Positions 35,518-50,895 of a stretch of DNA of 50,975 bases are shown piece after piece. Positions within the stretch are counted from its first letter, which is position 1. Each line of letters begins with the position of its first letter. Source of the stretch: a phage. The notes under the pieces are model-generated. The model was not told where the DNA came from, did not search any database, and saw only the letters and a list, made by a program, of their open reading frames with translations. The stretch lies in sequence record PZ871100.1; one strand, given 5' to 3'. The position numbers were made by a program, and so were the translations under genes.

Positions 35518-35533
35518 CGCCTCCTTTATTTTT
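35508..35533. terminator. terminator at end of lysis cassette (convergent junction)
   Basis: GGAGGC ttaac GCCTCC then TTTATTTTTAT; spanin stop codon in loop. Confidence 0.55.
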
Positions 35534-35750
35534 ATGCATCGGGCCATTCGTGGGAATGGTTTGTTAATTGTTGGTTTTCTTGAAACTCAATATCGTAATT
35601 ACCAGCCATCACGCGCATTGCCATGTTTTCAACATATTCTACAGCTTGCTCACGAGTCAATGAGTCGGCTGGGAACTTTGTAGGAATTTCAGTAGTAGTT
35701 CCGTTTTCATGCTTGACAACCAGCGCCACGGTGAAAAATTTGTTGCTCAT
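35532..35750 (-). CDS. hypothetical protein
   Basis: 72 aa; preceded by promoter unit and conserved leader. Confidence 0.45.
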   Translation of the reverse strand: MSNKFFTVALVVKHENGTTTEIPTKFPADSLTREQAVEYVENMAMRVMAGNYDIEFQENQQLTNHSHEWPDA

Positions 35751-35786
35751 GGTAACTTCCTTTTGTTGTTTCGTTTCGATGAAACA

Positions 35787-35830
35787 AATATACCCGATAC
35801 GAGATCGGGAGTTTTAACAAAAAGTGCTAT
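35787..35830 (-). promoter_or_regulatory. conserved-box promoter-like unit
   Basis: Minus-strand box (plus 35811-35830), spacer inverted repeat CCCGAT...ATCGGG, TATATT (plus 35787-35792), leader CATCGAAACGA. Confidence 0.6.
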
Positions 35831-35947
35831 TCAATACGCTTTACAGTAACCAACAAAACGCCGTCCTCATCACACAAATTATGCTCTGATATATCAAGCG
35901 CTCGCATGTCAGAATGAATGAGCGTTAACATTGCGTGCATGAAGTCG

Positions 35948-36340
35948 TCATGTGAGATTGAACTTACGGCGCAGAACTTCAATATTTTGTCTATTAGCAT
36001 TTGACGTAAACAATTCTTCATCGCTCATTTCTCCGATCCTTAAAACATCCCTTACCCATTCGTTTTGCATACCTTCCAGACTGTAAAGTTCAAACGAGAA
36101 AGGTCGATTTGCAGACCCTTTCTTACACCAGAACTTTCCACCAACTCCATCAAGATAACCAGCGGTCATCATTCTTGCGCAAAACTCTTTTGAAACGGCG
36201 GTTGCAAACATTCTCGGCGTAAATCCTGCGGCCCTTGCGAGCCGCTCACATTCTCTATGCTGAAATATAAATTTTGCGATATGTTGACGTGTAAACCATT
36301 CGAATGACTCACACCAGCGATACAGATCCAGAAGAAACAT
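35948..36340 (-). CDS. hypothetical protein
   Basis: 130 aa; start 2 nt after the upstream stop. Confidence 0.45.
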   Translation of the reverse strand: MFLLDLYRWCESFEWFTRQHIAKFIFQHRECERLARAAGFTPRMFATAVSKEFCARMMTAGYLDGVGGKFWCKKGSANRPFSFELYSLEGMQNEWVRDVLRIGEMSDEELFTSNANRQNIEVLRRKFNLT

Positions 36341-36342
36341 AA

Positions 36343-37926
36343 TTACCCCAGCAATGTTGGATTTACGAAAACAACGCCATTAATCACACAAATATAATTT
36401 CTTTCTTCAAGCATCGGCAGCAGTTGCGTTTCCATACGCTTCATTACGCCAGCCTGACCAACAAACGGCTTAACTTTTCGTGCAGCCTCATATATGGCGC
36501 GAACATTCAAGATTCCCTTGTTAGCCTTACCGTGTCGAGTGATAATCTCGATTAGTTTACCCATTTCAGCATCATCACCAGCATAGCCAGAAGCGTTGGC
36601 GGCGCTAATGTATGTTTTGCTCAACTCGCTAAACATCAGCAGTGCTTCCTGAACGGTTTCAACCTCAATCTCTTTCGACTTTTGAGGGTATCCGCCAGGA
36701 TTAAACCAATTGCGGATAGTGTGCAAAACCGAAGCAATCCTGATCACCTGCTTATCCATTTTGCCAAGCGCACCGCGCAGCATTGTATGCGAATACTTTC
36801 CGCCATCGGCAAGGTGCGGTTCCATCTCCTGACGAGCCATGTTAAGAACTCGCATTGCGGATTTGCTGATCTTAAGCTGGATGTTTGATTCACTCATGAT
36901 GTTATGGATCAGCTTGAAATATTGGCTTTTCAGTTCTCCATCAACAGGTTCATAAGTAGAATCACCGTTATCATCAACAAACTTTCTACGGCCTAAAAAT
37001 GATTCCTCACGCACAAGCAAATAACGCTCACTTACACCGATACCGCGAGATCCTGCATCCATGATGGCATTGATTGTTTCATCCTGGGCAATTACCGCCA
37101 TACAGCCAAGAGCTTTAAAACTCATATTGTTGTCAGCGTTTGCACGAGCTATAGAAACATGACCATGATCCCATGCTTTTAGCACAAGTTCGCTGTTGGT
37201 TTTACGTTCGCTATTGGCATATGTCAGACCTAAAAGGCTGTTAATACTTGTTGCCTCGTCTGAAATCACAGCAAAGTTACCCTGGCGATTGTTGATTCTT
37301 GCAAGTCCTTCCGGCGTTGTGTCGGACACAGGGAAAACGATGTCACACATCTTTTCCAGTTTTTCTTCCAGATCTTCTTTCTCCTGGTACAGGGATTCCA
37401 TATCAGCGCCGGAGCGCTCGCTTTTCATCTCTTTTGCAAGACCTGCCAACTTTGCCTGAATCTTTTTTCTTTCCTTCTTTCTCTGATCGTTAATTCTTTC
37501 CACTTCTGCAACCATTGGAGCAAGTGCCAGGCTGTTAACGGCAGATTTACCAGTTGAAGGAGGCTGGCTTGTGACAACATAAAGAGCGGTCGGCTGATCC
37601 GTTCCGTGATACTCAACAGTGAAGCGTCCAAGCATTGCAGCAGACACACATCCGATAAAATGCATATATGCCGATGATTCAGGAAATTGAACAGATCGAG
37701 CAATATTGCGCGCCAGCTTACCAACAATATCAACATCATTGCCGAGAGAAATTACAGGGTAGCGATCGTTTCCGTTATTAACATCATTAACCTCACCCCA
37801 AAAGCTGGACGATTGACGGTATCCGTTTGCCTGAATGGACACGCGCACAGGAGACAATCCTTGTGCATCAGCTAATTCGATAATTTGTTTTGGTGTTAGT
37901 TTATTGGTTTCAAACGAAAAATTCAT
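36343..37926 (-). CDS. P-loop NTPase, replication-associated (DUF3987-like, putative)
   Basis: ATG 37926 with AAGGAG RBS; Walker A-like PPSTGKS; acidic coiled region; own promoter unit. Confidence 0.4.
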   Translation of the reverse strand: MNFSFETNKLTPKQIIELADAQGLSPVRVSIQANGYRQSSSFWGEVNDVNNGNDRYPVISLGNDVDIVGKLARNIARSVQFPESSAYMHFIGCVSAAMLGRFTVEYHGTDQPTALYVVTSQPPSTGKSAVNSLALAPMVAEVERINDQRKKERKKIQAKLAGLAKEMKSERSGADMESLYQEKEDLEEKLEKMCDIVFPVSDTTPEGLARINNRQGNFAVISDEATSINSLLGLTYANSERKTNSELVLKAWDHGHVSIARANADNNMSFKALGCMAVIAQDETINAIMDAGSRGIGVSERYLLVREESFLGRRKFVDDNGDSTYEPVDGELKSQYFKLIHNIMSESNIQLKISKSAMRVLNMARQEMEPHLADGGKYSHTMLRGALGKMDKQVIRIASVLHTIRNWFNPGGYPQKSKEIEVETVQEALLMFSELSKTYISAANASGYAGDDAEMGKLIEIITRHGKANKGILNVRAIYEAARKVKPFVGQAGVMKRMETQLLPMLEERNYICVINGVVFVNPTLLG

Positions 37927-37953
37927 TGGTGATAACTCCTTTTTGATGCGGCA

Positions 37954-37997
37954 ATAATACCGCACCAATGCTACCCGCATTTAACAAAAAATGCTAT
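37954..37997 (-). promoter_or_regulatory. conserved-box promoter-like unit upstream of P-loop NTPase gene
   Basis: Minus-strand ATAGCATTTTTTGTTAAAT, 18 nt, TATTAT (plus 37954-37959). Confidence 0.55.
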
Positions 37998-38215
37998 TTG
38001 ATCCGCTCTATGCTAACTAAGATTTTTTCTGGTTCCTTTGCACTATGGCAATGCGCGGTTACAGAATCAACAAAATCAAAGTAAAGTGATTTGTGATATG
38101 AGAATCCAATCAGCCACCCAACCATCGTTTTCTTTATTGGCCTGACTATATCGCCAGGCTTAAAGGTTTTTGTTGCCGAATGAGTCACCTTATAGCGATG
38201 TTCAGCCTTGATCAC
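37994..38215 (-). CDS. hypothetical protein (GTG start)
   Basis: GTGA overlap with upstream stop. Confidence 0.3.
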   Translation of the reverse strand: MIKAEHRYKVTHSATKTFKPGDIVRPIKKTMVGWLIGFSYHKSLYFDFVDSVTAHCHSAKEPEKILVSIERIK

Positions 38216-38598
38216 TTATACATAGCCTCAAACAAATGACAGCCACCAGCGGAAAATCCAACTTCTTCGCGGTACAGCGTCCAGCGGTCGCCAGCTTCAT
38301 CAAACACATAACCAGCAACAGCGCCAAGCGCGCGGCCTTGCTCAATCTGGTAGCGCTTTCCTTCTTTGAAATGCTTTTTGCAAGGGATCTTGTGATCTAC
38401 AAAGGTGCATTTAATTGTTTTTGTCTTGATATGACGATAGTCAGACTCAACCGCGTTTTGCCACTTGCTACCATTTGTAATGCTCTTTACCTGGAATTGT
38501 TCCAACTCGATCACATCATCGCTACCAGCAATTTTTTCGTATACGGTTTTATAGCGCCCGTTCATCAAAACGTTGGTTTTATTGCAGATAACTTTCAT
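38212..38598 (-). CDS. hypothetical protein
   Basis: 128 aa; AAGGAG RBS; promoter unit upstream. Confidence 0.45.
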   Translation of the reverse strand: MKVICNKTNVLMNGRYKTVYEKIAGSDDVIELEQFQVKSITNGSKWQNAVESDYRHIKTKTIKCTFVDHKIPCKKHFKEGKRYQIEQGRALGAVAGYVFDEAGDRWTLYREEVGFSAGGCHLFEAMYK

Positions 38599-38629
38599 CG
38601 TTTATTTCTCCTTTCGTTTCGGTGAAATG

Positions 38630-38673
38630 ATTATGCCAGGCTTTTACACCTGGCTTTTAACAAAAAGTGCTAT
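38630..38673 (-). promoter_or_regulatory. conserved-box promoter-like unit
   Basis: Minus-strand box (plus 38654-38673), spacer inverted repeat GCCAGG...CCTGGC, CATAAT (plus 38630-38635), leader CACCGAAACGA; methyltransferase-like stop TAG in box. Confidence 0.6.
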
Positions 38674-39380
38674 TTTGCGTTTGCTTCAAAGACGGCGCGA
38701 GCAAAGCCGCGCGGAGTGAGGGAGCGGATCATCTTTGTGCGCGATGATTTTCCGCCAGTTTTGGCCCAACCAGGATTATCCTTGTCACCCTCTTTCGGAA
38801 GGATTGTTGAGCGCGGAGGAATAACAAATCCGTTTCCAGTCCAAAGGCATGTTTTCTTAAAGTACCGATCCCGCGCCGGAATAATATCAGGGAAGTCGGG
38901 ATGCTTATCATCTTCCTGCAGATAGCCAGCATAATCGCACGGATGGAACGTATAATCAGGCTTACGCCATAACGTTGACAGCTTGCCTACAGGATTTTCG
39001 ATCATGTAAGGAACGCCGAAATAATCAGCGATATGCGCCGCGATTCTGCAAGTGTCGGCGGCCTCATCCTGGAAAGAGGGATTCTCAAGGCGTTTTTTGG
39101 ACCAATGGCGAGATCCGCTATTTGCAAGGTCAGTGCACGGCGGAAATGCCATAATGAAATCAGGCTTGCCCCAATTTTCAAGTTTTGCGGTATATTTGAA
39201 TAGCTCATCAATCCACACATTAACGTAAAAAATATTATCATGGATTATGCGCACTGATTGGTAATCTCCATGATCTGCATCATCGTAATTAAAGCAAATG
39301 CATTTATATCCAGCATCAGCCCAATCTTTAACGGCTTTACCAGATCCATCAAACAAAGAGAATATTAAACCTTTATACAT
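38670..39380 (-). CDS. DNA C5-cytosine methyltransferase-like protein (putative)
   Basis: Motif I-like FSLFDGSG, motif IV-like FPPCTD, motif VI-like MIENPVG; stop TAG inside promoter box. Confidence 0.5.
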   Translation of the reverse strand: MYKGLIFSLFDGSGKAVKDWADAGYKCICFNYDDADHGDYQSVRIIHDNIFYVNVWIDELFKYTAKLENWGKPDFIMAFPPCTDLANSGSRHWSKKRLENPSFQDEAADTCRIAAHIADYFGVPYMIENPVGKLSTLWRKPDYTFHPCDYAGYLQEDDKHPDFPDIIPARDRYFKKTCLWTGNGFVIPPRSTILPKEGDKDNPGWAKTGGKSSRTKMIRSLTPRGFARAVFEANAK

Positions 39381-39389
39381 TTCATCACC

Positions 39390-39771: not shown

Positions 39772-39999
39772 TCATACAGCCTTCCAGCTTTCAATAAACA
39801 TGCTGTTTTCTTCCAGAAGTTTAATCAATTCTTCGCGCGTATATTTGCGGATTTTACTACCTGGATGTGAGCCAACAACAAACACACCTTTACCACTCGT
39901 GATGGTTAACTGGTTGATTCCGCAAGATTTATCCATTTTCACGGCGACGCGGTGATGTGCATCAACAGTGTGCATGATGTTAGTGACTTTAGCTTTCAT
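39772..39999 (-). CDS. hypothetical protein
   Basis: ATG 39999 with GAGGA RBS and promoter unit upstream; 75 aa. Confidence 0.45.
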   Translation of the reverse strand: MKAKVTNIMHTVDAHHRVAVKMDKSCGINQLTITSGKGVFVVGSHPGSKIRKYTREELIKLLEENSMFIESWKAV

Positions 40000-40029
40000 T
40001 ATGCAATCCTCATTATATTTGGTTTGGTA

Positions 40030-40072
40030 ACTATACCAGGTTTGAGAAATATTGTTTAGCAATTCGTGCTAT
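40030..40072 (-). promoter_or_regulatory. conserved-box promoter-like unit (variant ATAGCACGAATTGCTAAAC)
   Basis: Minus-strand box (plus 40054-40072), 18 nt, TATAGT (plus 40030-40035). Confidence 0.55.
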
Positions 40073-40173
40073 AAGTTGAAATAGCTATGGCGCTTTGCTC
40101 GCTTGCCGTCTCCGCCATAATGATCATTTGCAACAGCTACCATCCAGGAATTATGGAATATTATTAGCTTCAT

Positions 40174-40455: not shown

Positions 40456-40649
40456 TACACAACCTCCATAATAGTATTGAATCCACGCAGTTTGAAAGCA
40501 TTTCCATGTTTAACAACGTTCCATGTCAGGCCGGAGTGATACGCAACCATATCCTCAAGATCAATGGTGATGATAGCGCCTTTTTTAAAGATTCCTTTCT
40601 CGTGAGTGGTGTCACGCTGTACAACTTTAACATCAACTTGATTTTCCAT
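40455..40649 (-). CDS. hypothetical protein
   Basis: 64 aa; promoter unit and conserved leader (CATCGACAACGA...GAGGA) upstream. Confidence 0.45.
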   Translation of the reverse strand: MENQVDVKVVQRDTTHEKGIFKKGAIITIDLEDMVAYHSGLTWNVVKHGNAFKLRGFNTIMEVV

Positions 40650-40680
40650 TTTTAAATCCTCGTTCGTTGTCGATGCGCTT

Positions 40681-40724
40681 AATATACCAATCAGAGGCGC
40701 ATAGGTTTTAACAAAAAGTGCTAT
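40681..40724 (-). promoter_or_regulatory. conserved-box promoter-like unit
   Basis: Minus-strand box (plus 40705-40724), 18 nt, TATATT (plus 40681-40686), leader CATCGACAACGA. Confidence 0.55.
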
Positions 40725-41011
40725 TCAACAACAGATCCAGTTAAAGAGATAAGTGCTCTTGTGATCTTGTGTCTGCGATACTGACGCGCAACAACCGGAA
40801 GATTTTCACCGCTCTGATGACCCAAACAGATCGGCAACTCACCCTCAAGAGAGCGGAAGCCGCCAAATTCAAGATCCCGCACTGGCTTTGAGCGCCACGC
40901 TTCAATAAATCCGCGTTCGTCACGAGTGATATAGCGGTATATGTTAGGGAGGGGCAATTGTATCCCCTCAAAATCCACGGTATCGGTATAGCTGTAAAAC
41001 TTAGAACTCAT
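40721..41011 (-). CDS. hypothetical protein
   Basis: ATG 41011 with GGAG RBS; 96 aa. Confidence 0.4.
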   Translation of the reverse strand: MSSKFYSYTDTVDFEGIQLPLPNIYRYITRDERGFIEAWRSKPVRDLEFGGFRSLEGELPICLGHQSGENLPVVARQYRRHKITRALISLTGSVVE

Positions 41012-41153
41012 AGTCAACAACTCCAAATTCGTTAACAATTTGCGCCTTATAGAAGCCGCCATTTTTCGCAAGGTTGTAGCATGCCGCCACAGTTTCAAAT
41101 TCGCGCACTTCCGGCTTGCTGTTTTCGTGTTCCCAGGTAATCAGAGTAACCAT
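41001..41153 (-). CDS. hypothetical small protein (50 aa)
   Basis: Not in ORF track; GAGGA RBS; leader near-identical to that of 40455..40649. Confidence 0.35.
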   Translation of the reverse strand: MVTLITWEHENSKPEVREFETVAACYNLAKNGGFYKAQIVNEFGVVDYEF

Positions 41154-41186
41154 TTTTAAATCCTCGTATTCGTTGTCGATGTGTGT

Positions 41187-41230
41187 AATGTACAGGAATA
41201 CGAGGATTGAGTTTTAACAAAAAGTGCTAT
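41187..41230 (-). promoter_or_regulatory. conserved-box promoter-like unit
   Basis: Minus-strand box (plus 41211-41230), 18 nt, TACATT (plus 41187-41192), leader CATCGACAACGA. Confidence 0.5.
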
Positions 41231-41497
41231 TTAGTCCAGGAATTCGATTTCGCGCTCGCCAGTTAACGGATCTTTGATCCAGAATCCGAGCGCCTCACCG
41301 TAAATGCCGCCATAGAATCCAAGCGCCGACAGATCCTCACCTTTAACAAATACCAGATCACCGCTACGGCTTACGTGAGACACGTTAACGATAACCGGAA
41401 ATGTGCGGTTTTTAAATGCAGGCCGCAGGACGTAGCATCCATTGTTAAGCAGTCGTGCTTTGCGTTTCACCGGAATAGGTGCATTGATTCGCGCCAT
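41231..41497 (-). CDS. hypothetical protein
   Basis: ATG 41497 with AAGGAG RBS; 88 aa. Confidence 0.4.
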   Translation of the reverse strand: MARINAPIPVKRKARLLNNGCYVLRPAFKNRTFPVIVNVSHVSRSGDLVFVKGEDLSALGFYGGIYGEALGFWIKDPLTGEREIEFLD

Positions 41498-41756: not shown

Positions 41757-42025
41757 TTCTTGATCTCCTCAGCAATAAACTTCAGGACTTTGCGCAAAAA
41801 CACTTCATTATTGATGGTCGCTGGCAATTCTTCTTTTACTTCTTGCGGCAGGTAAACGTTGCCATGCCAGGTTAAGCAATCGTAGTTGATACGATAAGAG
41901 CAAAGCCACTCGCAATCGTTATCCGCTTCCCAAATGCAGAGTTGCAGAACATCGCCGAAATTCTCAACAGTCAGGTCCAGACCATGACGCTTGGCGAAAT
42001 TGAAAGTGGTTTTGCTGATGTTCAT
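41753..42025 (-). CDS. hypothetical protein
   Basis: 90 aa; AGGAG RBS; promoter unit and conserved leader upstream. Confidence 0.45.
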   Translation of the reverse strand: MNISKTTFNFAKRHGLDLTVENFGDVLQLCIWEADNDCEWLCSYRINYDCLTWHGNVYLPQEVKEELPATINNEVFLRKVLKFIAEEIKK

Positions 42026-42064
42026 TTGCTTTCTCCTGATTGGTATCTCGTTTCGATGTATGCA

Positions 42065-42107
42065 TTATGACAAATACAGTCAGGCACGTTTTAACAAAAA
42101 GTGCTAT
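42065..42107 (-). promoter_or_regulatory. conserved-box promoter-like unit (first of the minus small-gene block)
   Basis: Minus-strand box (plus 42088-42107), 17 nt, CATAAT (plus 42065-42070), leader CATCGAAACGA. Confidence 0.6.
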
Positions 42108-42402
42108 TTGCTGACTGGTCATTATTCCATATATTCCATTAATCAGGAATAACAGGAATAACTCATTCGCGATCACCTGGATTGGGAGACTTTGAGTTTG
42201 GTCAATTTTAATCAAGTGATTAACTTTTTGTGTGGAGGGGATAGAGAAACGCGATCCTCTCGCACCCTTTCCGGCAATCCTGGCGCGCAACATGTTCATT
42301 ATGTTTCCAGCCGTTCACGCAAATAAGCCTCCGCAGTTCTTCCACGTTTCATGCTGTCATGCACACAAAAGAAACAATGTAAAATCTATATAAATACACA
42401 TT

Positions 42403-42600
42403 AAATCAATAAGTTAGTTATATATGTATTTATATTTGTTTCTTATTGTTCTTGTTGTGTGATGGTTATTGGTATATGTTGCGATTTTTGTGTTGGTGGA
42501 TATTGATTGTTTATTGTTCGATTTGGTTGATGATTATGGTTGCTCATGGTTGCGTATGATTCTTGATGTATTTATGTATATATCCGCGAAAATTCGCGAA
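42403..42600. repeat. GT-rich noncoding element B (homolog of 20900-21050)
   Basis: 16-mer AAATCAATAAGTTAGT at 42403-42418, GT-rich tract, inverted repeat CGCGAA aa TTCGCG near 3-prime end. Confidence 0.6.
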
Positions 42601-42707
42601 CAGCCACACAGCCAAAAAACATGATGAGGATTCTTTTGAAATCATGCACTTAACTGCGAATTTTGTTTCCGCGCAATCTCCACACGTATAGCGAACAATT
42701 AGAACGC

Positions 42708-43536: not shown

Positions 43537-43569
43537 AGCCTCATCGAAACGAGATTGAGGAAAACAAAA

Positions 43570-43755: not shown

Positions 43756-43770
43756 TTAGCAGGTGAATAA

Positions 43771-43956: not shown

Positions 43957-44000
43957 ATAGCACTTTTTGTTAAAACTTAAAAACGATAACCAGGCATAAT
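43957..44000 (+). promoter_or_regulatory. conserved-box promoter-like unit
   Basis: Box 43957-43976, 18-nt spacer, CATAAT 43995-44000. Confidence 0.55.
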
Positions 44001-44054
44001 AAATCACATAGGGCGGCACGGCGTCGCCCGGTAAACCAATCAGGAGAAAGCACC

Positions 44055-44945
44055 ATGTTAAAACTTGCTGACATTAAATTCCCGATCACCTTCGAATCTC
44101 GCGGCGTTGGTCATTTCATGTTTACCGATGAGAAGACATGCACTAAGTTTAACGAATACGGAAGTCCAAACGCTTCAACAATGGAGGTTGAACACTTCAT
44201 TGAAGCGCACAATAAACACTACAACTCACTCAGAGACTACGGTTACGCAATGCCAGGATACACATGTTTTCACTACAAGCCATATAAGGGTCAGGTGTTA
44301 CCAGTGCGCTCACCGGAACGCGCAGAGATTCCGATGGTCAATATGAAAACGTGCGACTATAAAAAATTGTGGTGCTTAAGCGTGGATAACATCAAGTATC
44401 CGATCGTATTCCGCACGGTTGGTAACTCAACGATTCGCTATACGTCACCAGACAACGGCGTTTATAGCGATGGTCAGAAATCAGAGTTGAAAGTTGATTT
44501 CTTTGTCAATGGTCACAACAAATTCAATCCACACAATGAAGAAGATAAGGTGTACTACGTGGAAGATATTACAAAACACTTGTTTGGAGAAACACCATTC
44601 GGCTACGGGAAGACGTCAATTCAACAAATCATTGGCGAGGAGATCCACAAGGCAGCCGTTGAAATGAAAGCGCCTGGAGGCTGGCGTATTGATAAGAGCG
44701 CCTTTGCTTATCAAGAAATCGTAACGCAGGGCGCTATTGAAGACATGCCAGTTGCCGCCACGCTAAAAGGCGTTCAGCTTGATGACGGCGTGTGGTATGA
44801 ATTAACAGCTAAGCCAAAGACGATCGAGATTCATGATGATGTTGTTATTCTTCTGCTTCATTACGGTAGCGCAAAAAACCGTGCCGTTGCTGGCGAGATT
44901 AGCATCAAGCGCGGAACGATGGTTAAGTGGAAGGTGAAAGTGTAA
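44055..44945 (+). CDS. hypothetical protein with internal tandem duplication
   Basis: 296 aa; two similar ~100-aa segments (IKFPITFESRGVG / IKYPIVFRTVGNS; EHFIEAHNKH / DFFVNGHNKF); AGGAG RBS. Confidence 0.5.
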   Translation: MLKLADIKFPITFESRGVGHFMFTDEKTCTKFNEYGSPNASTMEVEHFIEAHNKHYNSLRDYGYAMPGYTCFHYKPYKGQVLPVRSPERAEIPMVNMKTCDYKKLWCLSVDNIKYPIVFRTVGNSTIRYTSPDNGVYSDGQKSELKVDFFVNGHNKFNPHNEEDKVYYVEDITKHLFGETPFGYGKTSIQQIIGEEIHKAAVEMKAPGGWRIDKSAFAYQEIVTQGAIEDMPVAATLKGVQLDDGVWYELTAKPKTIEIHDDVVILLLHYGSAKNRAVAGEISIKRGTMVKWKVKV

Positions 44946-44988
44946 ATAGCACGAATTGTTAAAACTCAAATGTGGGGCCAGGTATAAT
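44946..44988 (+). promoter_or_regulatory. conserved-box promoter-like unit (variant box ATAGCACGAATTGTTAAAAC)
   Basis: Box 44946-44965, TATAAT 44983-44988 inside inverted repeat GGCC...GGCC. Confidence 0.55.
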
Positions 44989-45018
44989 GGCCTCACTTTC
45001 AATGAAGGAGATAAAACT

Positions 45019-45249
45019 ATGTACATTAACAAGAAGATGAAATGCATTTCCGTTAACTATGGTTGCGCTGGCATGTTCAAGCCTGGCGAAATCTATATGG
45101 CGCAAAAGTTGAAATCATCAACCGGATCCTTTTACGTTAGTAATAGTAAGGGGCATCGCATGTTCCTGAACGGTGGTGAAGGTACTAATGTTATGGCACA
45201 CGCTATGGTAATTGCTGAATTTGAGGAAGTGAAAGATGAAAACAAATAA
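45019..45249 (+). CDS. hypothetical protein
   Basis: ATG 45019 with AAGGAG RBS after promoter unit. Confidence 0.4.
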   Translation: MYINKKMKCISVNYGCAGMFKPGEIYMAQKLKSSTGSFYVSNSKGHRMFLNGGEGTNVMAHAMVIAEFEEVKDENK

Positions 45250-45457
45250 GCGCGTCAAGCACAGGTTTACTGATAACCACGGCGACGCGATCGATGTATA
45301 CAAGTTCGGCGATCGCGTTTTTATTGACGGCACGTTTGAAGGTGGGAGCAGTCCGGATTTTAGGTCGATACTCACCGTTGACCAGGTGCGAAAGCTGGCG
45401 GATAAGTTAAATGATCTGGCAGATGAAATCGAATACAAGCAAATTCATTTTAATTGA
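45236..45457 (+). CDS. hypothetical protein
   Basis: 73 aa; GAGGAAG RBS. Confidence 0.4.
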   Translation: MKTNKRVKHRFTDNHGDAIDVYKFGDRVFIDGTFEGGSSPDFRSILTVDQVRKLADKLNDLADEIEYKQIHFN

Positions 45458-45468
45458 TAGGTTTGATA

Positions 45469-46008
45469 ATGAAAAAATACGAATTTGAACTTTGGGGCAG
45501 CAAATACCATTTTTCAACGAGCAAGCCGATTGTTATCGTTGACCTGGACGGAACGTTATCAGACGGAACGCATCGCTTACACCTTCTTCCGACAGAAGAT
45601 TTGCACCTTACAGAAAGCTGGTCTGAGTTCAATAAGGCGGCTGTTGGCGATTCGCCGATTAAGAGCACGGTTGCAGTGGTTAACGGTTTGTGGATGTCAG
45701 GATTTGCCATCGTTATCCTGACCGGACGCAGCGATGAAGTGATGGAGGACACCTGCAAATGGCTTAACGAAAACGGCATCAAGTACGATGCGTTAATCAT
45801 GCGCCGCAAGGAAGACAATCGCAAAGACACAATAATCAAAGAGGAAGTCTTGCGCGCTATCGGACTGGAAAACATTGTGTGCGCTTTTGATGATTCTCCG
45901 AACGTGGTTAAGCACTTCCGCAGCCTGGGAATCACAACCTATCAGGTAACGGAATACGACAAGCCACATAATCATATCCAATCGCATGGCGTGGAGGAAT
46001 TGAAATGA
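45469..46008 (+). CDS. HAD-superfamily phosphatase (nucleotidase or polynucleotide 3-phosphatase-like)
   Basis: Motif I IVIVDLDGTL (DxDxT), later ILTGR and FDDSPN motifs. Confidence 0.6.
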   Translation: MKKYEFELWGSKYHFSTSKPIVIVDLDGTLSDGTHRLHLLPTEDLHLTESWSEFNKAAVGDSPIKSTVAVVNGLWMSGFAIVILTGRSDEVMEDTCKWLNENGIKYDALIMRRKEDNRKDTIIKEEVLRAIGLENIVCAFDDSPNVVKHFRSLGITTYQVTEYDKPHNHIQSHGVEELK

Positions 46009-46166
46009 CATGGATTCTATTTGTGATTATCACAAGCTACAATTCAGCCGCAATTGAGTCTCGCGAGTTCCACGGTGAATCAAGATGTCAGGCCGCGAGA
46101 GAGCAAGTAATTTTGCATATGTCAGATAACGATAAAGAAGTTGAAGTATTCTGTGTTCGTAAATAG
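46005..46166 (+). CDS. hypothetical small protein (53 aa, hydrophobic N-terminus)
   Basis: Not in ORF track; ATGA overlap with phosphatase stop; stop TAG inside promoter box. Confidence 0.35.
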   Translation: MTWILFVIITSYNSAAIESREFHGESRCQAAREQVILHMSDNDKEVEVFCVRK

Positions 46167-46206
46167 CACTTTTTGCAAAAACAGATTATCGGGCTTGCTG
46201 TATAGT
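46163..46206 (+). promoter_or_regulatory. conserved-box promoter-like unit (variant ...TTGCAAAAAC)
   Basis: Box 46163-46182, TATAGT 46201-46206, inverted repeat GGGCTT...AAGCCC. Confidence 0.55.
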
Positions 46207-46236
46207 AAGCCCATCTACAAAAACGAGGATTAAATC

Positions 46237-46500
46237 ATGGTTAATAAAGTTGAGTTTTTCAAAGCGGTAGACAAGATTGACGGCGCGCCAAGTTTCTTTG
46301 CTATCCATTCCATTGACGGCGAAGACGTTGCATACAACGTGATTAGTCGAGACGGTATATCAAAACTTAGTGACCTGGTGGGTTATATTGTGGCGAACGG
46401 GAAATGTGCATGGCCCGATTCACCACGAGAGCCGCGCCGCCGCGACATGCAAAATCCAGTTCTGCTTTACACTCTGGTAATTGAAGGAGTCAACAAATGA
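46237..46500 (+). CDS. hypothetical protein
   Basis: 87 aa; GAGGA RBS after promoter unit. Confidence 0.4.
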   Translation: MVNKVEFFKAVDKIDGAPSFFAIHSIDGEDVAYNVISRDGISKLSDLVGYIVANGKCAWPDSPREPRRRDMQNPVLLYTLVIEGVNK

Positions 46501-46682
46501 TTTGGTTACTTGTATTTTTAGTGGTTTTCTTTTATATTTCAGGCTTATTCATCTTCCGAGCGCTGGTGAAAACATGCGATTGCACTGATAAAGATCAGCC
46601 TCTTGTTCTGATGTTCTGGTTTGTGTGGTTTTGGGTGGCGCTTTACCAGATTGTACGGGATGAAAGCGGCTTTAAGTGGTGA
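46497..46682 (+). CDS. small membrane protein (2 predicted TM)
   Basis: 61 aa; two hydrophobic helices; ATGA overlap. Confidence 0.4.
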   Translation: MIWLLVFLVVFFYISGLFIFRALVKTCDCTDKDQPLVLMFWFVWFWVALYQIVRDESGFKW

Positions 46683-46876
46683 TTCTTACTATAGCGCATT
46701 CACGCAGTGCGCTATGTTGAGATAACAACATGAGATCATGAAGATGCGAAACTTCGAAAAAATCGTATCCAAGAAGAAGCGATACAGCTACTACGAGCAC
46801 CAAGAGATGAATCAACGCTATCGCAAAAAGCGCCAGCGAAAAGGTAAAAATTCCAGTAAACATGGAGAAAATCAAT

Positions 46877-47467
46877 ATGAAACGCGACATTATCATTCTT
46901 AACGGACCGCCAGGAGTTGGCAAAGATACGCTTGCGGCATACTTAACTGGCCATCGTTACGCAGCCGTTAAAGCGTCGTTTAAGCAACCGATGTTTGATA
47001 TTGCATTCTCCATGCTTGGCGTTTACCTATATGACGAGTTCATTGATCTGTATAACGACCGCGAGCAGAAAGAAAAGCCTCAAGCAATCTTGCAAGGCAA
47101 GTCTCCGCGACAATTCATGATCTGGATTAGCGAAGAAGTCATGAAGCCAGCTTTTGGCGAGCAATATTTTGGGAATCGCATGGTTGAGCAAGTACACGAG
47201 ATGTACAGAGATTTAGCTGTTGTAATTAGTGATGGCGGATTCCCTGAAGAAATCAAACCGCTCGTTAAGGCAGGCCATGAAGTGCACATTTGCCGACTGC
47301 ATCGCGAAGGATTCACGTTTGATGGCGATTCGCGAAACTATATTGACCTGAACGGATACCATCACCGAGTCAAGCATTACGACTTCACAATGATTGATGG
47401 CGAGCCAGAAAAGACTGTTGACGAGATCATCAAAACGGTGCAGTGGAAACACACAAAGATTGAATAG
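46877..47467 (+). CDS. P-loop nucleotide kinase (dNMP kinase or polynucleotide kinase-like)
   Basis: ATG 46877 with GGAG RBS; Walker A NGPPGVGKDT. Confidence 0.55.
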   Translation: MKRDIIILNGPPGVGKDTLAAYLTGHRYAAVKASFKQPMFDIAFSMLGVYLYDEFIDLYNDREQKEKPQAILQGKSPRQFMIWISEEVMKPAFGEQYFGNRMVEQVHEMYRDLAVVISDGGFPEEIKPLVKAGHEVHICRLHREGFTFDGDSRNYIDLNGYHHRVKHYDFTMIDGEPEKTVDEIIKTVQWKHTKIE

Positions 47468-47507
47468 CACGAATTGCTAAAAGCGGGGCGCAATGCCTCG
47501 CTATAAT
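47464..47507 (+). promoter_or_regulatory. conserved-box promoter-like unit (variant ATAGCACGAATTGCTAAAAG)
   Basis: Box 47464-47483, TATAAT 47502-47507. Confidence 0.55.
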
Positions 47508-47537
47508 GCAAACACCAATCAACGAGAGGAAATCATC

Positions 47538-47939
47538 ATGGTAGAGTTAAACAACATCCGCATTGGAACAAAATTTCGCGTAACCTGGGCAGATAAATAT
47601 TGCGGAGTTAGCAAGGGCCAGGTTGTTACTGTGGATAGTATTTATCGCGGATGCAGCAAAGACTTTCGCCGCCCACGCATCACGAATGGCTATATCATTA
47701 CTCGCCGTTTTGGCTTTGATCATTATTGCGTAGTGGCGACTCAAGGAGTTTTGATTGAGCTTCAGCGAATCAGCGATCATCGCGGCTGTCATGTCAAAAC
47801 AACGAAGATACCATCTCAGCGATCGCGATACGATGCGCGCAGGATGCGCAGGCTTGCACGAAACGCGATCAAGTTCAAAAAGCATGGTGGTAACTTTTAC
47901 CGAATGTACAAAGGGATTGCGCGAAATGCTGGAAAATAA
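47538..47939 (+). CDS. hypothetical protein (basic C-terminus)
   Basis: ATG 47538 with GAGAGGAAA RBS after promoter unit; 133 aa. Confidence 0.4.
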   Translation: MVELNNIRIGTKFRVTWADKYCGVSKGQVVTVDSIYRGCSKDFRRPRITNGYIITRRFGFDHYCVVATQGVLIELQRISDHRGCHVKTTKIPSQRSRYDARRMRRLARNAIKFKKHGGNFYRMYKGIARNAGK

Positions 47940-48057
47940 CAACAACGCAACAAATCCAAAGCCGCCATTTGATTTTCATGAAATCATGATTGTGTTATTC
48001 TTGATTCTCTTAGTTGTTTATTCAGTGAGGGCCGCAATATGGTTTTTAATGCACTAA
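47926..48057 (+). CDS. small membrane peptide (43 aa)
   Basis: Not in ORF track at this start; hydrophobic helix IMIVLFLILLVVYSV. Confidence 0.25.
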   Translation: MLENNNNATNPKPPFDFHEIMIVLFLILLVVYSVRAAIWFLMH

Positions 48058-48302
48058 AACGAATCTTTAAACCTGAATACCGGATCGTTGCTTGCACAGA
48101 ATGCAAGATTTATTATCTGCAACGCCGCCGCGTTATTAGTGGGGATTGGGAATATCTGACTGATGATGCTTTCGGCTTTTGGGCTATGGAGTTCAATAGC
48201 TACAGCGAAGCGCGTGAATACGCTAAAAAGTTGCACAAGTTCAGACCTTACAAGCTGCGTTTGCTGGTTGTCAAAAAATGCGATGTGTGGGATCACGAAT
48301 GA
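48039..48302 (+). CDS. hypothetical protein
   Basis: 87-aa ORF. Confidence 0.35.
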   Translation: MVFNALKRIFKPEYRIVACTECKIYYLQRRRVISGDWEYLTDDAFGFWAMEFNSYSEAREYAKKLHKFRPYKLRLLVVKKCDVWDHE

Positions 48303-48478
48303 AAAGAGTAATTATCATTTTTATTGCCATTATCGCTGGTTGCTACCTGGCTTATAATTATAGCGGCATTGTTGAGTCAATCGGCGGATTGATTATCTTC
48401 ATGGCTGGCGGGTATGCTGGCTATTGTGATGGATTCGAAAACGGAAAGCGTTACATGCTGACCGGAAAAAAGAAGTAA
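48299..48478 (+). CDS. small membrane protein
   Basis: ATG 48299 in ATGA overlap; two hydrophobic segments. Confidence 0.35.
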   Translation: MKRVIIIFIAIIAGCYLAYNYSGIVESIGGLIIFMAGGYAGYCDGFENGKRYMLTGKKK

Positions 48479-48521
48479 TGTTAACCGCGCCGCTTCGGTG
48501 GCGCTAAAAGGAGGAAACAAA

Positions 48522-48809
48522 ATGGCTAAAAGCAATCGTAAAATGTTGATTAACGCATTCGAAAAGGCGGCGCTTGAGCGTGGTTGGAATGACTCATTTC
48601 ACACAGCAAACTGTATCCGCCATTACGGATTCAAGAATTGCCGATCCTGGGCGCGTGAAATGGCTTCATGGTATGATCTTGATGCGCATTACCTTGATAT
48701 GGATTGCGCCCTTGTTGAAATGATTGAGCAGGCCGCACTAGAGGATCGACCATTAACGCAATCTGATTTTGACGATTTTGTGCGCGATGAAATTTATTAT
48801 ATGAGCTAA
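48522..48809 (+). CDS. hypothetical protein
   Basis: ATG 48522 with AAGGAGG RBS; 95 aa; stop adjacent to promoter box. Confidence 0.4.
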   Translation: MAKSNRKMLINAFEKAALERGWNDSFHTANCIRHYGFKNCRSWAREMASWYDLDAHYLDMDCALVEMIEQAALEDRPLTQSDFDDFVRDEIYYMS

Positions 48810-48852
48810 TAGCACTTTTTGTTAAAACTTCCGCGAGGGCATTTGTTAAAGT
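48809..48852 (+). promoter_or_regulatory. conserved-box promoter-like unit
   Basis: Box 48809-48828, 18-nt spacer, weak hexamer TAAAGT 48847-48852, leader TTGAAGCGAAACAGAGGAAA. Confidence 0.45.
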
Positions 48853-48884
48853 GTCCTCATTGAAGCGAAACAGAGGAAATCAAA

Positions 48885-49097
48885 ATGAAAATTCGAATCA
48901 CCAAGGTTGACATTGACCGCAACGACGGAAGCATTACCCTTGAGCAATGCGGGTTTAAAGTTGGTGACATTGTAGATGTTGACGGATTCTTTCGCGATGG
49001 TTCTTACTGCGTGTTGGCAATCCGCAACACGGAAGAAATTCGAATCGGTGATAACATCGGCGTAAACCATGACGAATGCGAGGTAGTAGAAGAATGA
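48885..49097 (+). CDS. hypothetical protein
   Basis: 70 aa; AGAGGAAA RBS after promoter unit. Confidence 0.4.
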   Translation: MKIRITKVDIDRNDGSITLEQCGFKVGDIVDVDGFFRDGSYCVLAIRNTEEIRIGDNIGVNHDECEVVEE

Positions 49098-49402
49098 TCA
49101 CGATTAACCTTTCAGAAGAACAAGCAAAGAAACTCCTGCACGCTGTAGGTTCTCGTGCACTTTGCGGATCAACTGATGAAATGATTATTGATCATGAGGT
49201 TGCAAGAGAGCTTTTTACTCAGCTTGATCAAAAATTCTCACCACGTCCGACTGACGCGGCAGAAACTGCAAAATGGCTTGCTGAGAATGGATACACGGCT
49301 TTAAAAGTTCACAACTGGAAACGAAAGCGCAAAAAGACTATTGATCGTGTATCTGGTGTTGTTTCTCGCTGCATTATGGTTGATGTGGAGAAATTAAAAT
49401 GA
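49094..49402 (+). CDS. hypothetical protein
   Basis: ATG 49094 in ATGA overlap; 102 aa. Confidence 0.4.
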   Translation: MITINLSEEQAKKLLHAVGSRALCGSTDEMIIDHEVARELFTQLDQKFSPRPTDAAETAKWLAENGYTALKVHNWKRKRKKTIDRVSGVVSRCIMVDVEKLK

Positions 49403-49710
49403 TTTACATTCACACTTACGGGATCGGGAAGTTTGCCAACAAGCAGATCCGAAATATTCACGACACGCTCGACGATGCTAAAGCACAGCAACGCGTTTTG
49501 GGTGGTGTAATTCAGGCTTTTGAGCCTGTGGAAGATATTGAGCACCGCGAGCATTTAAAAGATGTTGTCATTGATGAGATCTCTTGCTTGATTGATGATA
49601 TGACAAATCACGGGCCTGGTTCTCCGTGGGAAGAAGCCGGATCGACGGAGTGGGATTGCGCTAAAGTTGCAACGCTTAACAAATTTCGTGAGTTGCTCGA
49701 CGATTTTTAA
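49399..49710 (+). CDS. hypothetical protein
   Basis: 103 aa; followed by terminator-like hairpin. Confidence 0.4.
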   Translation: MIYIHTYGIGKFANKQIRNIHDTLDDAKAQQRVLGGVIQAFEPVEDIEHREHLKDVVIDEISCLIDDMTNHGPGSPWEEAGSTEWDCAKVATLNKFRELLDDF

Positions 49711-49780
49711 TTAAAATTGAATGCCTCATACAGCGAACAGGACGCATTTTGACGAGGCATTTTTAAGGTAAGGTGATTCA

Positions 49781-49909
49781 ATGGATAACTACATAAAACC
49801 GTCGCAGTGGTGCTCACAGAAGCAAGAGGAAGCATTAGAACGCGGCGACACTGAAACGGCAATGCACTATTTCGAAATGTACAACTTGTGGAAGGGTAGA
49901 GGTCTGTAA
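49781..49909 (+). CDS. hypothetical small protein (42 aa)
   Basis: Not in ORF track; AAGGTGA RBS; TAATG overlap with next gene. Confidence 0.3.
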   Translation: MDNYIKPSQWCSQKQEEALERGDTETAMHYFEMYNLWKGRGL

Positions 49910-50139
49910 TGTTTGGAATGAACGAGGCACAATTCAACGCTGCAAAACGCCAGGCTAAGAAGTGCGGCGAGGCAATGAAGGCGGATGTTGAAAAGCGCGG
50001 GAAGTATGTTGATGAAGTTATGAAGGGCATTATTGCCGAACATTATCAGCCAGTTGCGCCAATGCTGACAATCACCCAATTCATCTGGTTGTGTGGTTAT
50101 CTTCGCGGGAGATGGGGAAGCGCATTTGACCGCGAATGA
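49909..50139 (+). CDS. hypothetical protein
   Basis: 76-aa ORF. Confidence 0.4.
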   Translation: MFGMNEAQFNAAKRQAKKCGEAMKADVEKRGKYVDEVMKGIIAEHYQPVAPMLTITQFIWLCGYLRGRWGSAFDRE

Positions 50140-50229
50140 TTGACAACGATTTCCTGATTGGATAGCATATCAATCGTTTACATAAGAGCGGCTAAGGCCG
50201 AACGGGTGGCGCGGTTGCCACGCAACAAC

Positions 50230-50271
50230 GGCGATATGCAGGTTTTTACCGTAAGACGTATCGCCTTTTTT
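50230..50271 (+). terminator. terminator-like hairpin
   Basis: GGCGATA...TATCGCC then TTTTTT. Confidence 0.5.
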
Positions 50272-50283
50272 ATAGGTGAATAT

Positions 50284-50517
50284 ATGGAAAAGTACAAATT
50301 AACTTTCATGTTTGATGGCATGGTGATGAATCCAATAAATGGTTACGCTTGCAATAGCTTTTCTGTTACCGTGAATGAGGATGGAATTGATGATGATGGT
50401 AAATTTATTCGAATAGGTGATTACATTTATCCTATTCACAATATCAATTGCATCAAGCGCGAGATTGTTAATGATGAAGTACAAAGTAAAGCTGACAATC
50501 AGACGAATTGGGCGTAA
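50284..50517 (+). CDS. hypothetical protein
   Basis: ATG 50284 with AGGTGA RBS just after terminator-like hairpin; 77 aa. Confidence 0.35.
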   Translation: MEKYKLTFMFDGMVMNPINGYACNSFSVTVNEDGIDDDGKFIRIGDYIYPIHNINCIKREIVNDEVQSKADNQTNWA

Positions 50518-50659
50518 TTGCTCTTCATGCAAACAAATTTTTGAATGTGAGGTTGAAGCGCGCGGAGAGCTTGAGGCAGCAGCAAGAGCAAAAGAGTTGT
50601 CCGGCGCTAATCAAGACACTCACCAGTTTTCAATAGATCTTGTAAGGAAAATATCATGA
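50471..50659 (+). CDS. hypothetical protein
   Basis: 62 aa; stop in ATGA overlap with next gene supports reality. Confidence 0.35.
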   Translation: MMKYKVKLTIRRIGRNCSSCKQIFECEVEARGELEAAARAKELSGANQDTHQFSIDLVRKIS

Positions 50660-50895
50660 GTTCTGTAATTATTGGTTTGGTTTCTTTAATCATTGGTGTT
50701 CTAATCGGCTTTGTTGCTGTATCTTTCGTGGTGGCTGTTGGCGTTCGCTATAAGTCAAAAAAGGGTGAATTTGCTTTAGCGTTTTGGGATGAAGAGCAGA
50801 AAGTTTGGCAGGTTCGCGGTCACTATTTATCAATCGGTGGCAGGATTCACAGCACTATGAAAACAAATCCAGAGAAAGTAAAATACAAGTATTGA
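50656..50895 (+). CDS. small membrane protein (N-terminal TM)
   Basis: 79 aa; N-terminal hydrophobic helix; followed by strong terminator. Confidence 0.45.
   Translation: MSSVIIGLVSLIIGVLIGFVAVSFVVAVGVRYKSKKGEFALAFWDEEQKVWQVRGHYLSIGGRIHSTMKTNPEKVKYKY

Follow-up and report, generated by a model that had tools for sequence, protein, structure and literature searches.

The stretch of phage DNA analysed here (sequence record PZ871100.1, 50,975 nt; 'the window' denotes this whole stretch) carries two divergent arrays of small genes, the arms of a T1-like phage, in which many intergenic gaps are filled by copies of one repeated cassette. The best overall explanation, to which we give a probability of about 0.6, is that the arms are punctuated by class II promoter cassettes of the marbox type, the marbox being the binding site of the host activators MarA, SoxS and Rob. 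As gene arrays, the two arms are nothing unusual for a phage of the T1 type, and the novelty lies in their punctuation: what we regard as new is that the repeat is putatively identified as a promoter cassette of the class II marbox type that includes a conserved hairpin.

A preliminary description of this DNA, made from the sequence alone, had mentioned 'cassette promoters' interleaved with the genes, and we recovered them as 13 copies of a unit of ~75 nt that fill intergenic gaps of 67-77 nt (98 nt in one case). The window holds 19 cassettes, 13 of them in the array region, and a 21-mer representing their common box gave 16 matches at no more than three mismatches, against 0 in 100 shuffles. 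The order of elements is the stop codon of the upstream gene, the box, a variable spacer of 18 (±1) nt, a -10 hexamer, a leader, a Shine-Dalgarno sequence and the ATG. The box has 20-21 nt and reads AATAGCAC, followed by TTTTT or GAATT and then by G(T/C)TAAAAC; the -10 is a (C/T)ATAAT-like or TAnnnT hexamer, after which come ~7 nt, the leader CAYCGAAACGA, GAGGA and the ATG. Box and start codon are 72-83 nt apart in the window (99 nt in one copy). In 11 of the 13 array cassettes the upstream gene stops in or against the box. Seven times the TAG of the box (AA-TAG-CAC) is itself the upstream stop codon (35827-35831, 37994-37998, 38670-38674, 40721-40725, 43492-43496, 46162-46166 and 47463-47467), and in four further cassettes the upstream TAA ends at box position 1 or 2. 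The cassette supplies stop codon, promoter, leader and ribosome-binding site as one unit. The ~43 array genes form roughly 15 short operons, thirteen of which are opened by a cassette copy, and it is very likely that we are dealing with a repeated promoter cassette of the early and accessory arms of T1-like phages. With the genes of the minus-strand array called m1 to m17 (plus m2b) and those of the plus-strand array p1 to p26, the array cassettes are:

35750..35831, minus strand: cassette driving m1; box 35811-35831, -10 TATATT
37926..37998, minus strand: cassette driving the helicase gene m3 together with m2b and perhaps m2; box AATAGCATTTTTTGTTAAATG, -10 TATTAT surrounded by a strong hairpin
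38598..38674, minus strand: cassette driving m5-m4; -10 CATAAT, spacer hairpin GCCAGG/CCTGGC
39999..40073, minus strand: cassette driving m9-m8-m7-m6; GAATT-type box TATAGCACGAATTGCTAAAC
40649..40725, minus strand: cassette driving m11 (Gp54 family) and m10
41153..41231, minus strand: cassette driving m13-m12
42025..42108, minus strand: cassette driving m16-m15-m14
43492..43572, plus strand: cassette driving p3-p4
43956..44057, plus strand: cassette driving p5; longer leader, extra GC hairpin
44945..45021, plus strand: cassette driving p6-p9; GAATT type, -10 TATAAT
46162..46239, plus strand: cassette driving p10-p13
47463..47540, plus strand: cassette driving p14-p18; GAATT type, -10 TATAAT
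48808..48887, plus strand: cassette driving p19-p21; a 10-bp hairpin whose loop contains the -10, TAAAGT, with a compensatory G-C to A-T change in JLBYU26

Six further cassettes lie outside the arrays, at 10104 (minus), 20769 (minus), 28512 (minus), 29003 (plus), 31527 (plus) and 32568 (plus). A cassette is always co-oriented with the gene it precedes, and one copy has no downstream gene. At 10102-10122 (minus) a complete box, with the -10 hexamer TAGCAT 18 nt downstream, lies antisense in the all-plus structural module; on one side of it stands the terminator (10040-10062) of the gene for the major tail protein, on the other the Shine-Dalgarno sequence and ATG of the next gene (10135). The equivalent site of T1 also carries a copy (18832-18849, minus), and a further T1 copy stands upstream of the major head gene (15068, minus). 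The unit in the window might produce a short antisense RNA or interfere with read-through. The cassette at 20712-20789 (minus) drives a small lipoprotein-like gene (MKKLIAVLM...), antisense among the tail genes, whose position is that of the Cor superinfection-exclusion gene of T1. Two cassette-like promoters (28512, minus, and 29003, plus; window 28457-29076) flank a gene for a Cro/YdaS-type regulator (28513-28986, minus) at the divergent primase/helicase junction, the box on the primase side being a CTAAT variant.

The full cassette was found at 4,185 places in ~1,046 phage records, nearly all of them Drexlerviridae of Enterobacterales. Their hosts are Klebsiella, Escherichia, Shigella, Salmonella, Citrobacter and Enterobacter, genera that carry MarA/SoxS/Rob/RamA. 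Some records are labelled with hosts outside Enterobacterales (twenty Campylobacter jejuni and sixteen Vibrio phages); these labels may be wrong, or the host range may be wider than assumed. A reannotation of phage TLS published in 2024 (PMC11447400) described the repeat aaATAGCACnnnTTGnTAAAA in 21 copies, ~76 nt upstream of start codons and in the direction of transcription, most strongly conserved at ATAGCAC and TAAAA, and reported it from T1, Rtp and Rogue1 as well, in TTT, GAA and AAA subtypes. The same paper found only three sigma-70-like promoters and left the function of the repeat open, suggesting stoperators, enhancer sites or UP elements (PMC11447400). The box of the window agrees with the definition of the TLS repeat in consensus, direction, distance and copy number (~20 per genome). 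Exactly this repeat was reported there, and the element as such is therefore known.

Next, we compared the box with the published marbox, 5'-gcannwwntgnnaaa-3' (PMC12052159). The two agree at every specified position, and all 13 array cassettes are perfect matches; the copies vary at the N positions of the consensus, while GCA, TG and AAA are invariant. Perfect marbox matches number 21 in the window against ~2 expected from shuffles, and the corresponding values are 20 against 0.9 for T1 and 12 against 0.9 for the Klebsiella Webervirus KW1, compared with 1 against 0.8 for lambda and 0 against 0.3 for T7. An older 20-mer consensus, AYnGCACnnWnnRYYAAAYn, was reportedly given by Martin et al. in 1999. 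Sixteen window sites fit this 20-mer once position 19 is relaxed, and micF also has an A there.

Orientation and spacing point in the same direction. Class II marbox promoters carry the site in forward orientation by definition (PMC12052159, PMC10268841), and every box with a downstream gene is co-oriented with that gene. A TAnnnT hexamer follows the 20-mer after 17-18 nt at 18 of the 21 sites (19 of 21 in a slightly wider scan). Read from the genome, the Escherichia coli micF promoter is ACAGCACTGAATGTCAAAAC-18 nt-TAGAAT-7 nt-+1, and its spacing equals that of the cassettes. For this class II promoter, structures of the complexes with Rob and with RamA are available, and in them the activator sits over the -35 region with its centre near -41 (PMC9178005, PMC8811837). 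With the start site assumed to lie 7 nt after the -10, the cassette box would be centred near -41 too. All -10 hexamers of the cassettes have A2 and T6 and score 4-6 of 6 matches. At the -35 the best match, taken over spacers of 16-18 nt, averages 2.5 of 6 with a maximum of 4, and class II marbox promoters average 1.9 of 6 (PMC10268841). Searches for a phage-encoded AraC/MarA-like protein by tblastn and phmmer found none (best E ~1 with MarA and SoxS as queries), and the phage regulator is a single helix-turn-helix (HTH) protein of the Cro/YdaS type. No paper linking MarA/SoxS/Rob with Drexlerviridae or T1-like phages was found in the literature; one on triclosan and phage permissiveness (PMC11061290) and one on the distortion of base pairing by MarA (PMC12781870) proved to have no bearing on the question.

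From this evidence we propose that the cassette would act as a sigma-70 class II activator-dependent promoter, in which a forward marbox near -41 would stand in for the missing -35 element. Host MarA/SoxS/Rob (RamA in Klebsiella and Salmonella) would bind the box and recruit RNA polymerase as at micF, and much of the non-structural transcription of the phage would thus be wired to the host mar/sox/rob stress regulon. That the cassette is activated by MarA/SoxS/Rob, as predicted from its sequence and geometry, appears to us an even chance.

Besides the box, the promoter core shows a second conserved property. Compared with shuffled or random sequences it folds far more strongly in the window (mean z -2.7, p=7e-8), in T1 (mean z -3.7, p=8e-10) and in KW1 (mean z -3.2, p=1e-5). 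The hairpin is either a stem-loop inside the spacer or is formed by a G-rich arm in the spacer and a C-rich arm past the -10, with the hexamer in the loop, as is often the case; examples, with a C-rich discriminator, are found at 43513-43531, 44966-44990, 46174-46195 and 48818-48841. In orthologous cassettes the hairpin is kept while its sequence differs, including one clean compensatory change from G-C to A-T. It is not a canonical intrinsic terminator, because the sense strand has no U-tract after the hairpin.

Other promoter readings of the box were rejected. A sigma-54 promoter has the consensus TGGCAC-N5-TTGC, and by inspection the elements of the box (TAGCAC-N3-TTGC) stand 2 nt too close and have AG for GG. 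Sites for CRP, Fis and IHF did not fit the box on inspection either. If TTGnTA in the box is taken as a -35, the spacer to the -10 becomes 22 nt; TGnTAAAAC as an extended -10 lacks the final T of the hexamer and is unlikely, as the downstream TAnnnT hexamers bear the true -10 signature. A generic sigma-70 scan of the window returned 23 sites against 35 in shuffles, fewer than expected, and misses the cassettes because they have no -35. Additional transcription signals in and around the arrays, the candidate promoter ahead of p1 and the putative terminator after p21 being read from the sequence, are:

35505..35527, both strands: terminator-like hairpin, bidirectional, separating the lysis cassette from the end of the minus-strand array
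42708..42736, plus strand: candidate sigma-70 promoter preceding p1-p2, TTGACA-17 nt-CAACAT, in which the -35 is perfect and the -10 weak; no marbox
49721..49764, plus strand: putative terminator, a hairpin with T-run after p21
50140..50168, plus strand: sigma-70-type promoter ahead of p24-p26, TTGACA-17-TAGCAT, 10/12 matches
50902..50919, plus strand: terminator-like hairpin closing the plus-strand array, before the small terminase gene

Several points weigh against activation by the host regulators. The argument is one of sequence and geometry. A screen of the Keio collection with the T1-like phage LL5 recovered receptor and lipopolysaccharide genes, secB and ppiB, and no rob, marA or soxS knockout with a plating defect of at least 20-fold (PMC7229145). 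It is therefore unlikely that any one of the three is strictly required, and redundancy or substantial basal activity would have to be assumed. In cells free of stress there is little MarA and SoxS, and Rob stays largely inactive unless inducers are present; for a virulent phage, reliance on them looks risky. The uniformity of the box far exceeds that of host marboxes, and an AAT at its 5' end is conserved in addition; copying from one cassette to another, or a different binding protein, could account for these features and for the two or three spacer types. Enough activity without any factor could come from the -10, which is near consensus, from the T-tract and from the extended -10 seen in 7 of 19 copies. 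Neither the hairpin nor the conserved leader follows from the marbox model. The start sites are inferred; no transcriptome or start-site map of any Drexlerviridae phage was found in the literature.

The phage was placed by megablast. The window is a near-complete Hanrivervirus genome (Drexlerviridae, Tempevirinae; a T1-like coliphage). Its identity to herni, pSf-1, vojen and SFP17 is 94-97%, with 88-100% of the query covered, and nucleotide identity together with synteny with genus members assigns it to this genus. SFP17, vojen and herni match the structural half over 100% of its length at 96-97% identity, and the array region is 92-95% identical to herni, pSf-1, KarlJaspers and aaroes over 83-91%; in total, 349 phage records matched the array region. 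Gene order is identical to that of herni, pSf-1 and KarlJaspers at ~94% nucleotide identity. Annotated relatives share the layout of a lysis cassette, a leftward array, a rightward array and then the small terminase gene, and on the T1 map (NC_005833) the arrays form the two ends of the genome (ST1-ST10 and ST55-ST77). Because relatives and T1 share this layout, the paired small-gene arms are a known trait of the family. It also follows from the T1 map that the AT-rich divergent region at 42.3-42.7 kb corresponds to the T1 map ends. Rfam and tRNA scans returned 0 families and 0 genes, respectively. The array genes and the region between them are listed below; start codons were chosen by Shine-Dalgarno context and by tblastn mapping onto the coding sequences of herni.

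35532-35750, minus strand: m1
35827-36021, minus strand: m2
35948-36340, minus strand: m2b, YdbL-like
36343-37926, minus strand: m3, DUF3987 helicase, 527 aa
37994-38215, minus strand: m4
38212-38598, minus strand: m5
38670-39380, minus strand: m6, Dcm-like methyltransferase, 236 aa
39390-39614, minus strand: m7
39611-39724, minus strand: m8
39772-39999, minus strand: m9
40174-40455, minus strand: m10
40455-40649, minus strand: m11, Gp54 family, 64 aa
40721-41011, minus strand: m12
41001-41153, minus strand: m13
41231-41497, minus strand: m14
41511-41756, minus strand: m15
41753-42025, minus strand: m16
41964-42299, minus strand: m17, a doubtful open reading frame (ORF)
42300..42707: divergent intergenic region, rich in AT, that contains direct and inverted repeats as well as the doubtful m17 / remnant of herni gp31; equivalent to the T1 map ends (pac/terminal-redundancy side)
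42775..50895, plus strand: plus-strand array of 26 ORFs, p1-p26
42775..43236, plus strand: p1, DUF7174, 153 aa, first gene of the plus arm
44055-44945, plus strand: p5, 296 aa, no assignment
45469-46008, plus strand: p8, HAD/PNKP phosphatase, 179 aa
46877-47467, plus strand: p13, deoxynucleoside monophosphate (dNMP) kinase, 196 aa

The preliminary description had located the two divergent arrays correctly (minus strand 35532-42025, possibly to 42299; plus strand 42775-50895), but its figure of about 35 ORFs was too low, as we counted 43 (17 minus, 26 plus). That most have 40-150 aa holds insofar as 37 of the 43 do not exceed 150 aa (32 do not exceed 100 aa, and the median is 79 aa), but five larger proteins are present as well. 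The tight coupling it noted is seen in many junctions with 4-nt or 1-nt overlaps of the ATGA/TAATG type, and the predicted sequence features are there too: transmembrane-like segments in seven ORFs and Cys-rich tails in m7 and p25. Lipoboxes occur in several array ORFs, and the membrane or lipoprotein ORFs of the plus-strand array are p2, p11, p15, p17 and p26. Four of the five larger proteins could be assigned by PHROG and Pfam matches (m3, m6, p8 and p13); the exception is p5, for which structure prediction gave no usable fold (pLDDT 35). Matches to Serglycin were an artefact of the Gly-Ser linkers joining the concatenated proteins in the search.

Some genes deserve separate mention. The YdbL-like gene m2b is probably a full gene of 130 aa that is translationally coupled to the helicase gene; in pSf-1 a 516-bp HNH endonuclease gene (2075-2587) is inserted exactly between the two (window site 36341-36343). 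The homologue of m10 (window 40174-40455) in JakobBernoulli is annotated as 'putative homing endonuclease'. Both are mobile-nuclease polymorphisms at gene borders. The 'polynucleotide kinase' p8 has the HAD phosphatase domain only (179 aa; p8-p9 span 45469-46166), and p13 is a separate P-loop protein of the dNMP-kinase family. As the herni counterpart of p8 has 237 aa with another C-terminus and herni lacks p9, the 3' end of p8 is an alternative module. The doubtful m17 runs through a cassette and matched no PHROG family, and its herni counterpart is broken in the window. At 42081-42401 (minus) the equivalent of herni gp31, with 70% identity (tblastn), is interrupted by two stop codons; relatives annotate ORFs of 189-327 bp at this spot, beside the AT-rich repeat region, and in the window it is a decaying or mis-called gene. 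The divergent intergenic region itself contains a 40-nt imperfect inverted repeat (42362-42401 / 42422-42461) and, in AT-rich DNA, a 38-nt direct repeat (42432-42469 / 42500-42537), which are candidates for a packaging or replication signal.

To describe conservation we built a presence/absence matrix of 44 ORFs against eight Tempevirinae relatives, plus T1. The term 'ORFans' used earlier for the small genes does not hold: ~30 of the 38 small ORFs fall into PHROG families (all of unknown function), six match Pfam above threshold (Gp54, DUF7170, DUF7174, DUF7421, DUF7180 and DUF7299), and 30 of the 44 ORFs are present in all 8 relatives. NCBIfam gave no match for any small array ORF. The presence/absence variation that had been suggested as a check is partly seen, 14 of the 44 ORFs being missing from at least one relative while 30 are universal; conservation with synteny extends to these 30 within the subfamily, and 13 of the 44 are detectable in T1. 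Modular gain and loss between close relatives affects m1, m12-m13, p2, p7, p9 and p10, and four to six ORFs have very divergent alleles, among them p1 (26-99% identity), p19, p20 and p26. These results narrow the truly variable modules to m1, m12-13, p1, p2, p7, p9, p10, p19, p20 and p26. The array products are mostly conserved phage proteins without assigned function, apart from the helicase, the methyltransferase, the phosphatase, the dNMP kinase and the Gp54-family protein.

The arrays had been proposed to be host-takeover or anti-defence islands, their small ORFs acting as early immunity inhibitors or host shut-off factors. What stands of this is that they are accessory or early arms containing one defence-linked family (m11); a match to a named anti-defence protein was not among the results. 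By sequence no such homologue was found in Pfam, NCBIfam, PHROGs or PDB, and no dedicated anti-defence collection was searched. The position of the arms at the T1 map ends speaks for the proposal, as do the modules that vary in presence, the hyper-divergent p1, p19, p20 and p26 and the low number of ORFs detectable in T1, the plausible anti-restriction function of the Dcm-like methyltransferase m6, and the several small acidic (m7, p19, p21) or membrane proteins. So does the membership of m11 in the Gp54 family, whose member in Bas11 contacts a defence protein and is non-essential. Against these stand the 30 ORFs conserved and syntenic in all 8 relatives, four products that are replication or nucleotide-metabolism enzymes, and p1, the best candidate, whose model resembles a nucleic-acid-binding protein and not a known inhibitor; moreover, the early timing of the arms is assumed, and m11 is ~55% identical to the active trigger and differs from it at I25. 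We therefore regard the island reading as tentative: an anti-defence role is plausible for some array genes and shown for none.

Two genes were considered more closely in this respect. With m11, only one small array ORF family (Gp54) has a published defence interaction. The protein matches PF25180 (Gp54) with 121.6 bits (cut-off 27; E=1e-35; model positions 1-65) and PDB entry 9axb_A with E=3e-15 over residues 1-64; the family fold is a six-stranded beta-barrel. Gp54 of Bas11 directly triggers CapRelSJ46 and is non-essential, and its authors suggest that it may inhibit another defence system, whereas the homologues of SECphi27, Bas5, Bas8 and Bas10 did not trigger CapRelSJ46 (PMC11578894). Compared with Bas11 Gp54, m11 has ~55% identity and keeps G24, but I25 is replaced by Ala, and the inactive homologues carry fewer changes from the Bas11 trigger than m11 does. 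Trigger activity is therefore unlikely, and m11 is probably not a CapRel trigger. The model of p1 has a winged-helix/R3H-like N-domain followed by two long helices, and fold searches returned only weak winged-helix/R3H similarity; on the basis of this model p1 may bind nucleic acid.

As to the box, it might be an operator, stoperator or activator site of a phage protein, either the Cro/YdaS-like regulator (28513-28986) or p1, with a merely coincidental likeness to the marbox. Its uniformity beyond that of host marboxes, the extra AAT 5' of GCAC, the presence of at least one encoded HTH regulator and of a possible winged helix in p1, and the box copies flanking the regulator gene (28512, minus; 29003, plus) would all suit such a site, and the TLS authors proposed stoperators or enhancer sites (PMC11447400). 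We nevertheless consider it unlikely, as the fit of 10 fixed and two W marbox positions, of orientation and of micF spacing would arise by chance with a probability of ~1e-5 or less (our own estimate, allowing for several motifs). Furthermore, Cro-type regulators normally bind dyads, and the box is asymmetric, as expected of a monomeric AraC-type protein with two HTHs. The operons transcribed first would need an activator before any phage protein exists, and p1 alleles diverge down to 26% identity while the box is invariant.

We give similarly little credit to a factor-independent strong promoter, in which the T- and A-tracts of the box would serve the alpha subunits of RNA polymerase as a UP-like element and no activator would be required. 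Such an element was suggested in the TLS paper (PMC11447400), and the LL5 Keio screen yielded no host transcription factor (PMC7229145). The -10 is near consensus (CATAAT, TATAAT, TATAGT), TGn stands upstream of it in 7 of 19 copies, and the box has a T5 run at about -47 to -43 and an A4 run at about -36 to -33. On the other hand, the UP consensus consists of A/T only and the most conserved box positions are G, C, A, C, T and G; the GAATT variants have no T-tract and yet keep GCAC...TG..AAA; and the exact marbox register and spacing are left unexplained.

The cassettes also appear to have a second role. Compared with the eight relatives, 12 of 40 synteny breakpoints fall inside cassettes (±15 nt) against 9% expected (3.3-fold, p=2e-4), which shows statistically that cassettes are preferred junctions for the turnover of gene modules. 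Two cassettes in direct repeat flank the module m12-m13, which KarlJaspers, morffagbaw and damhaus lack, and pSf-1 has a 'foreign' spacer upstream of m5 that resembles the window p3 cassette. We attribute the preference for module gain, loss and exchange to the near-identical direct repeats at the module borders. Since the other 28 breakpoints lie outside cassettes, mainly at plain gene boundaries, this is a tendency and not a rule. Arbiol et al. are said to have described in 2010 promoter-early stem-loop (PeSL) cassettes in hyperplastic regions of T4-type phages; that the present cassettes are chiefly mobile modules of this kind that shuffle small ORFs, with the promoter details secondary, is the least probable of the alternatives, since for all the repeats at module borders, the breakpoint enrichment, the loss of m12-m13 in three relatives, the swapped spacer in pSf-1 and the stem-loop in every cassette, most breakpoints (28/40) lie elsewhere, cassettes also precede core genes (helicase, primase, recombination) without shuffling, and the idea does not compete with promoter function.

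Returning to marbox-type promoters, a wider statement would be that in Drexlerviridae ~12-21 promoters per genome, serving most early, replication and accessory operons, are plugged into the host mar/sox/rob (ram) regulon; we advance this with clear reservation. T1-type phages have no RNA polymerase or sigma factor of their own, yet almost no standard promoters are annotated in them, and regulon wiring would explain this apparent lack of ordinary sigma-70 promoters. If it is true, infection efficiency should respond to salicylate, bile salts, redox stress and antibiotic exposure, and hundreds of replicating genomes with ~20 consensus marboxes each should titrate the regulators off host efflux and porin genes. 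Gene expression of common phages of Enterobacterales, many Klebsiella and E. coli therapy candidates among them, would be coupled to regulators of intrinsic antibiotic resistance, with a bearing on phage-antibiotic combinations and on infection in the bile-rich gut.

Finally, we compared the window with known systems. The terminal regions of T1 (ST1-ST10 and ST55-ST77) agree with its arrays in where they lie and how they are oriented with respect to lysis genes, terminase and map ends, and the helicase, YdbL-like, polynucleotide kinase and kinase anchors as well as the cassettes are the same, although homologues are detectable for only 13 of the 44 window ORFs; in the minus arm the window carries the Dcm-like methyltransferase where T1 carries HNH endonucleases. 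Within these arms m11 is a full-length member of the Bas11 Gp54 family (PF25180; PDB 9axb/9erv), with 64 aa compared to 66 aa, encoded in the same kind of Drexlerviridae accessory arm. The PeSL units of T4-type phages are likewise reported to be repeated combinations of promoter and stem-loop that punctuate arrays of small, variable and mostly uncharacterised ORFs and are linked to the shuffling of modules. Their sequence is unrelated, however; in the window the upstream box resembles a marbox and the promoter core itself contains the stem-loop, and the evidence for shuffling is statistical and partial. With class II MarA/SoxS/Rob/RamA promoters such as micF the cassettes share an asymmetric box of 20 bp in which the elements GCAC and (Y)YAAA lie 7 bp apart, the forward orientation, the overlap with and replacement of the -35, a centre near -41 and 18 nt to a canonical -10. 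Host marboxes, in contrast, are degenerate and occur once per promoter, whereas the phage has ~20 near-identical copies with a hairpin and a conserved leader, to which binding is predicted only. The 21-nt direct repeats of TLS and T1 (PMC11447400) are the same element as the window box, which occurs here in the TTTTT and GAATT types; to that paper the present analysis adds the fixed link over 17-18 nt to a -10, the agreement with the marbox and a geometry like that of micF, together with the hairpin, the leader and the stop codons embedded in the cassette.

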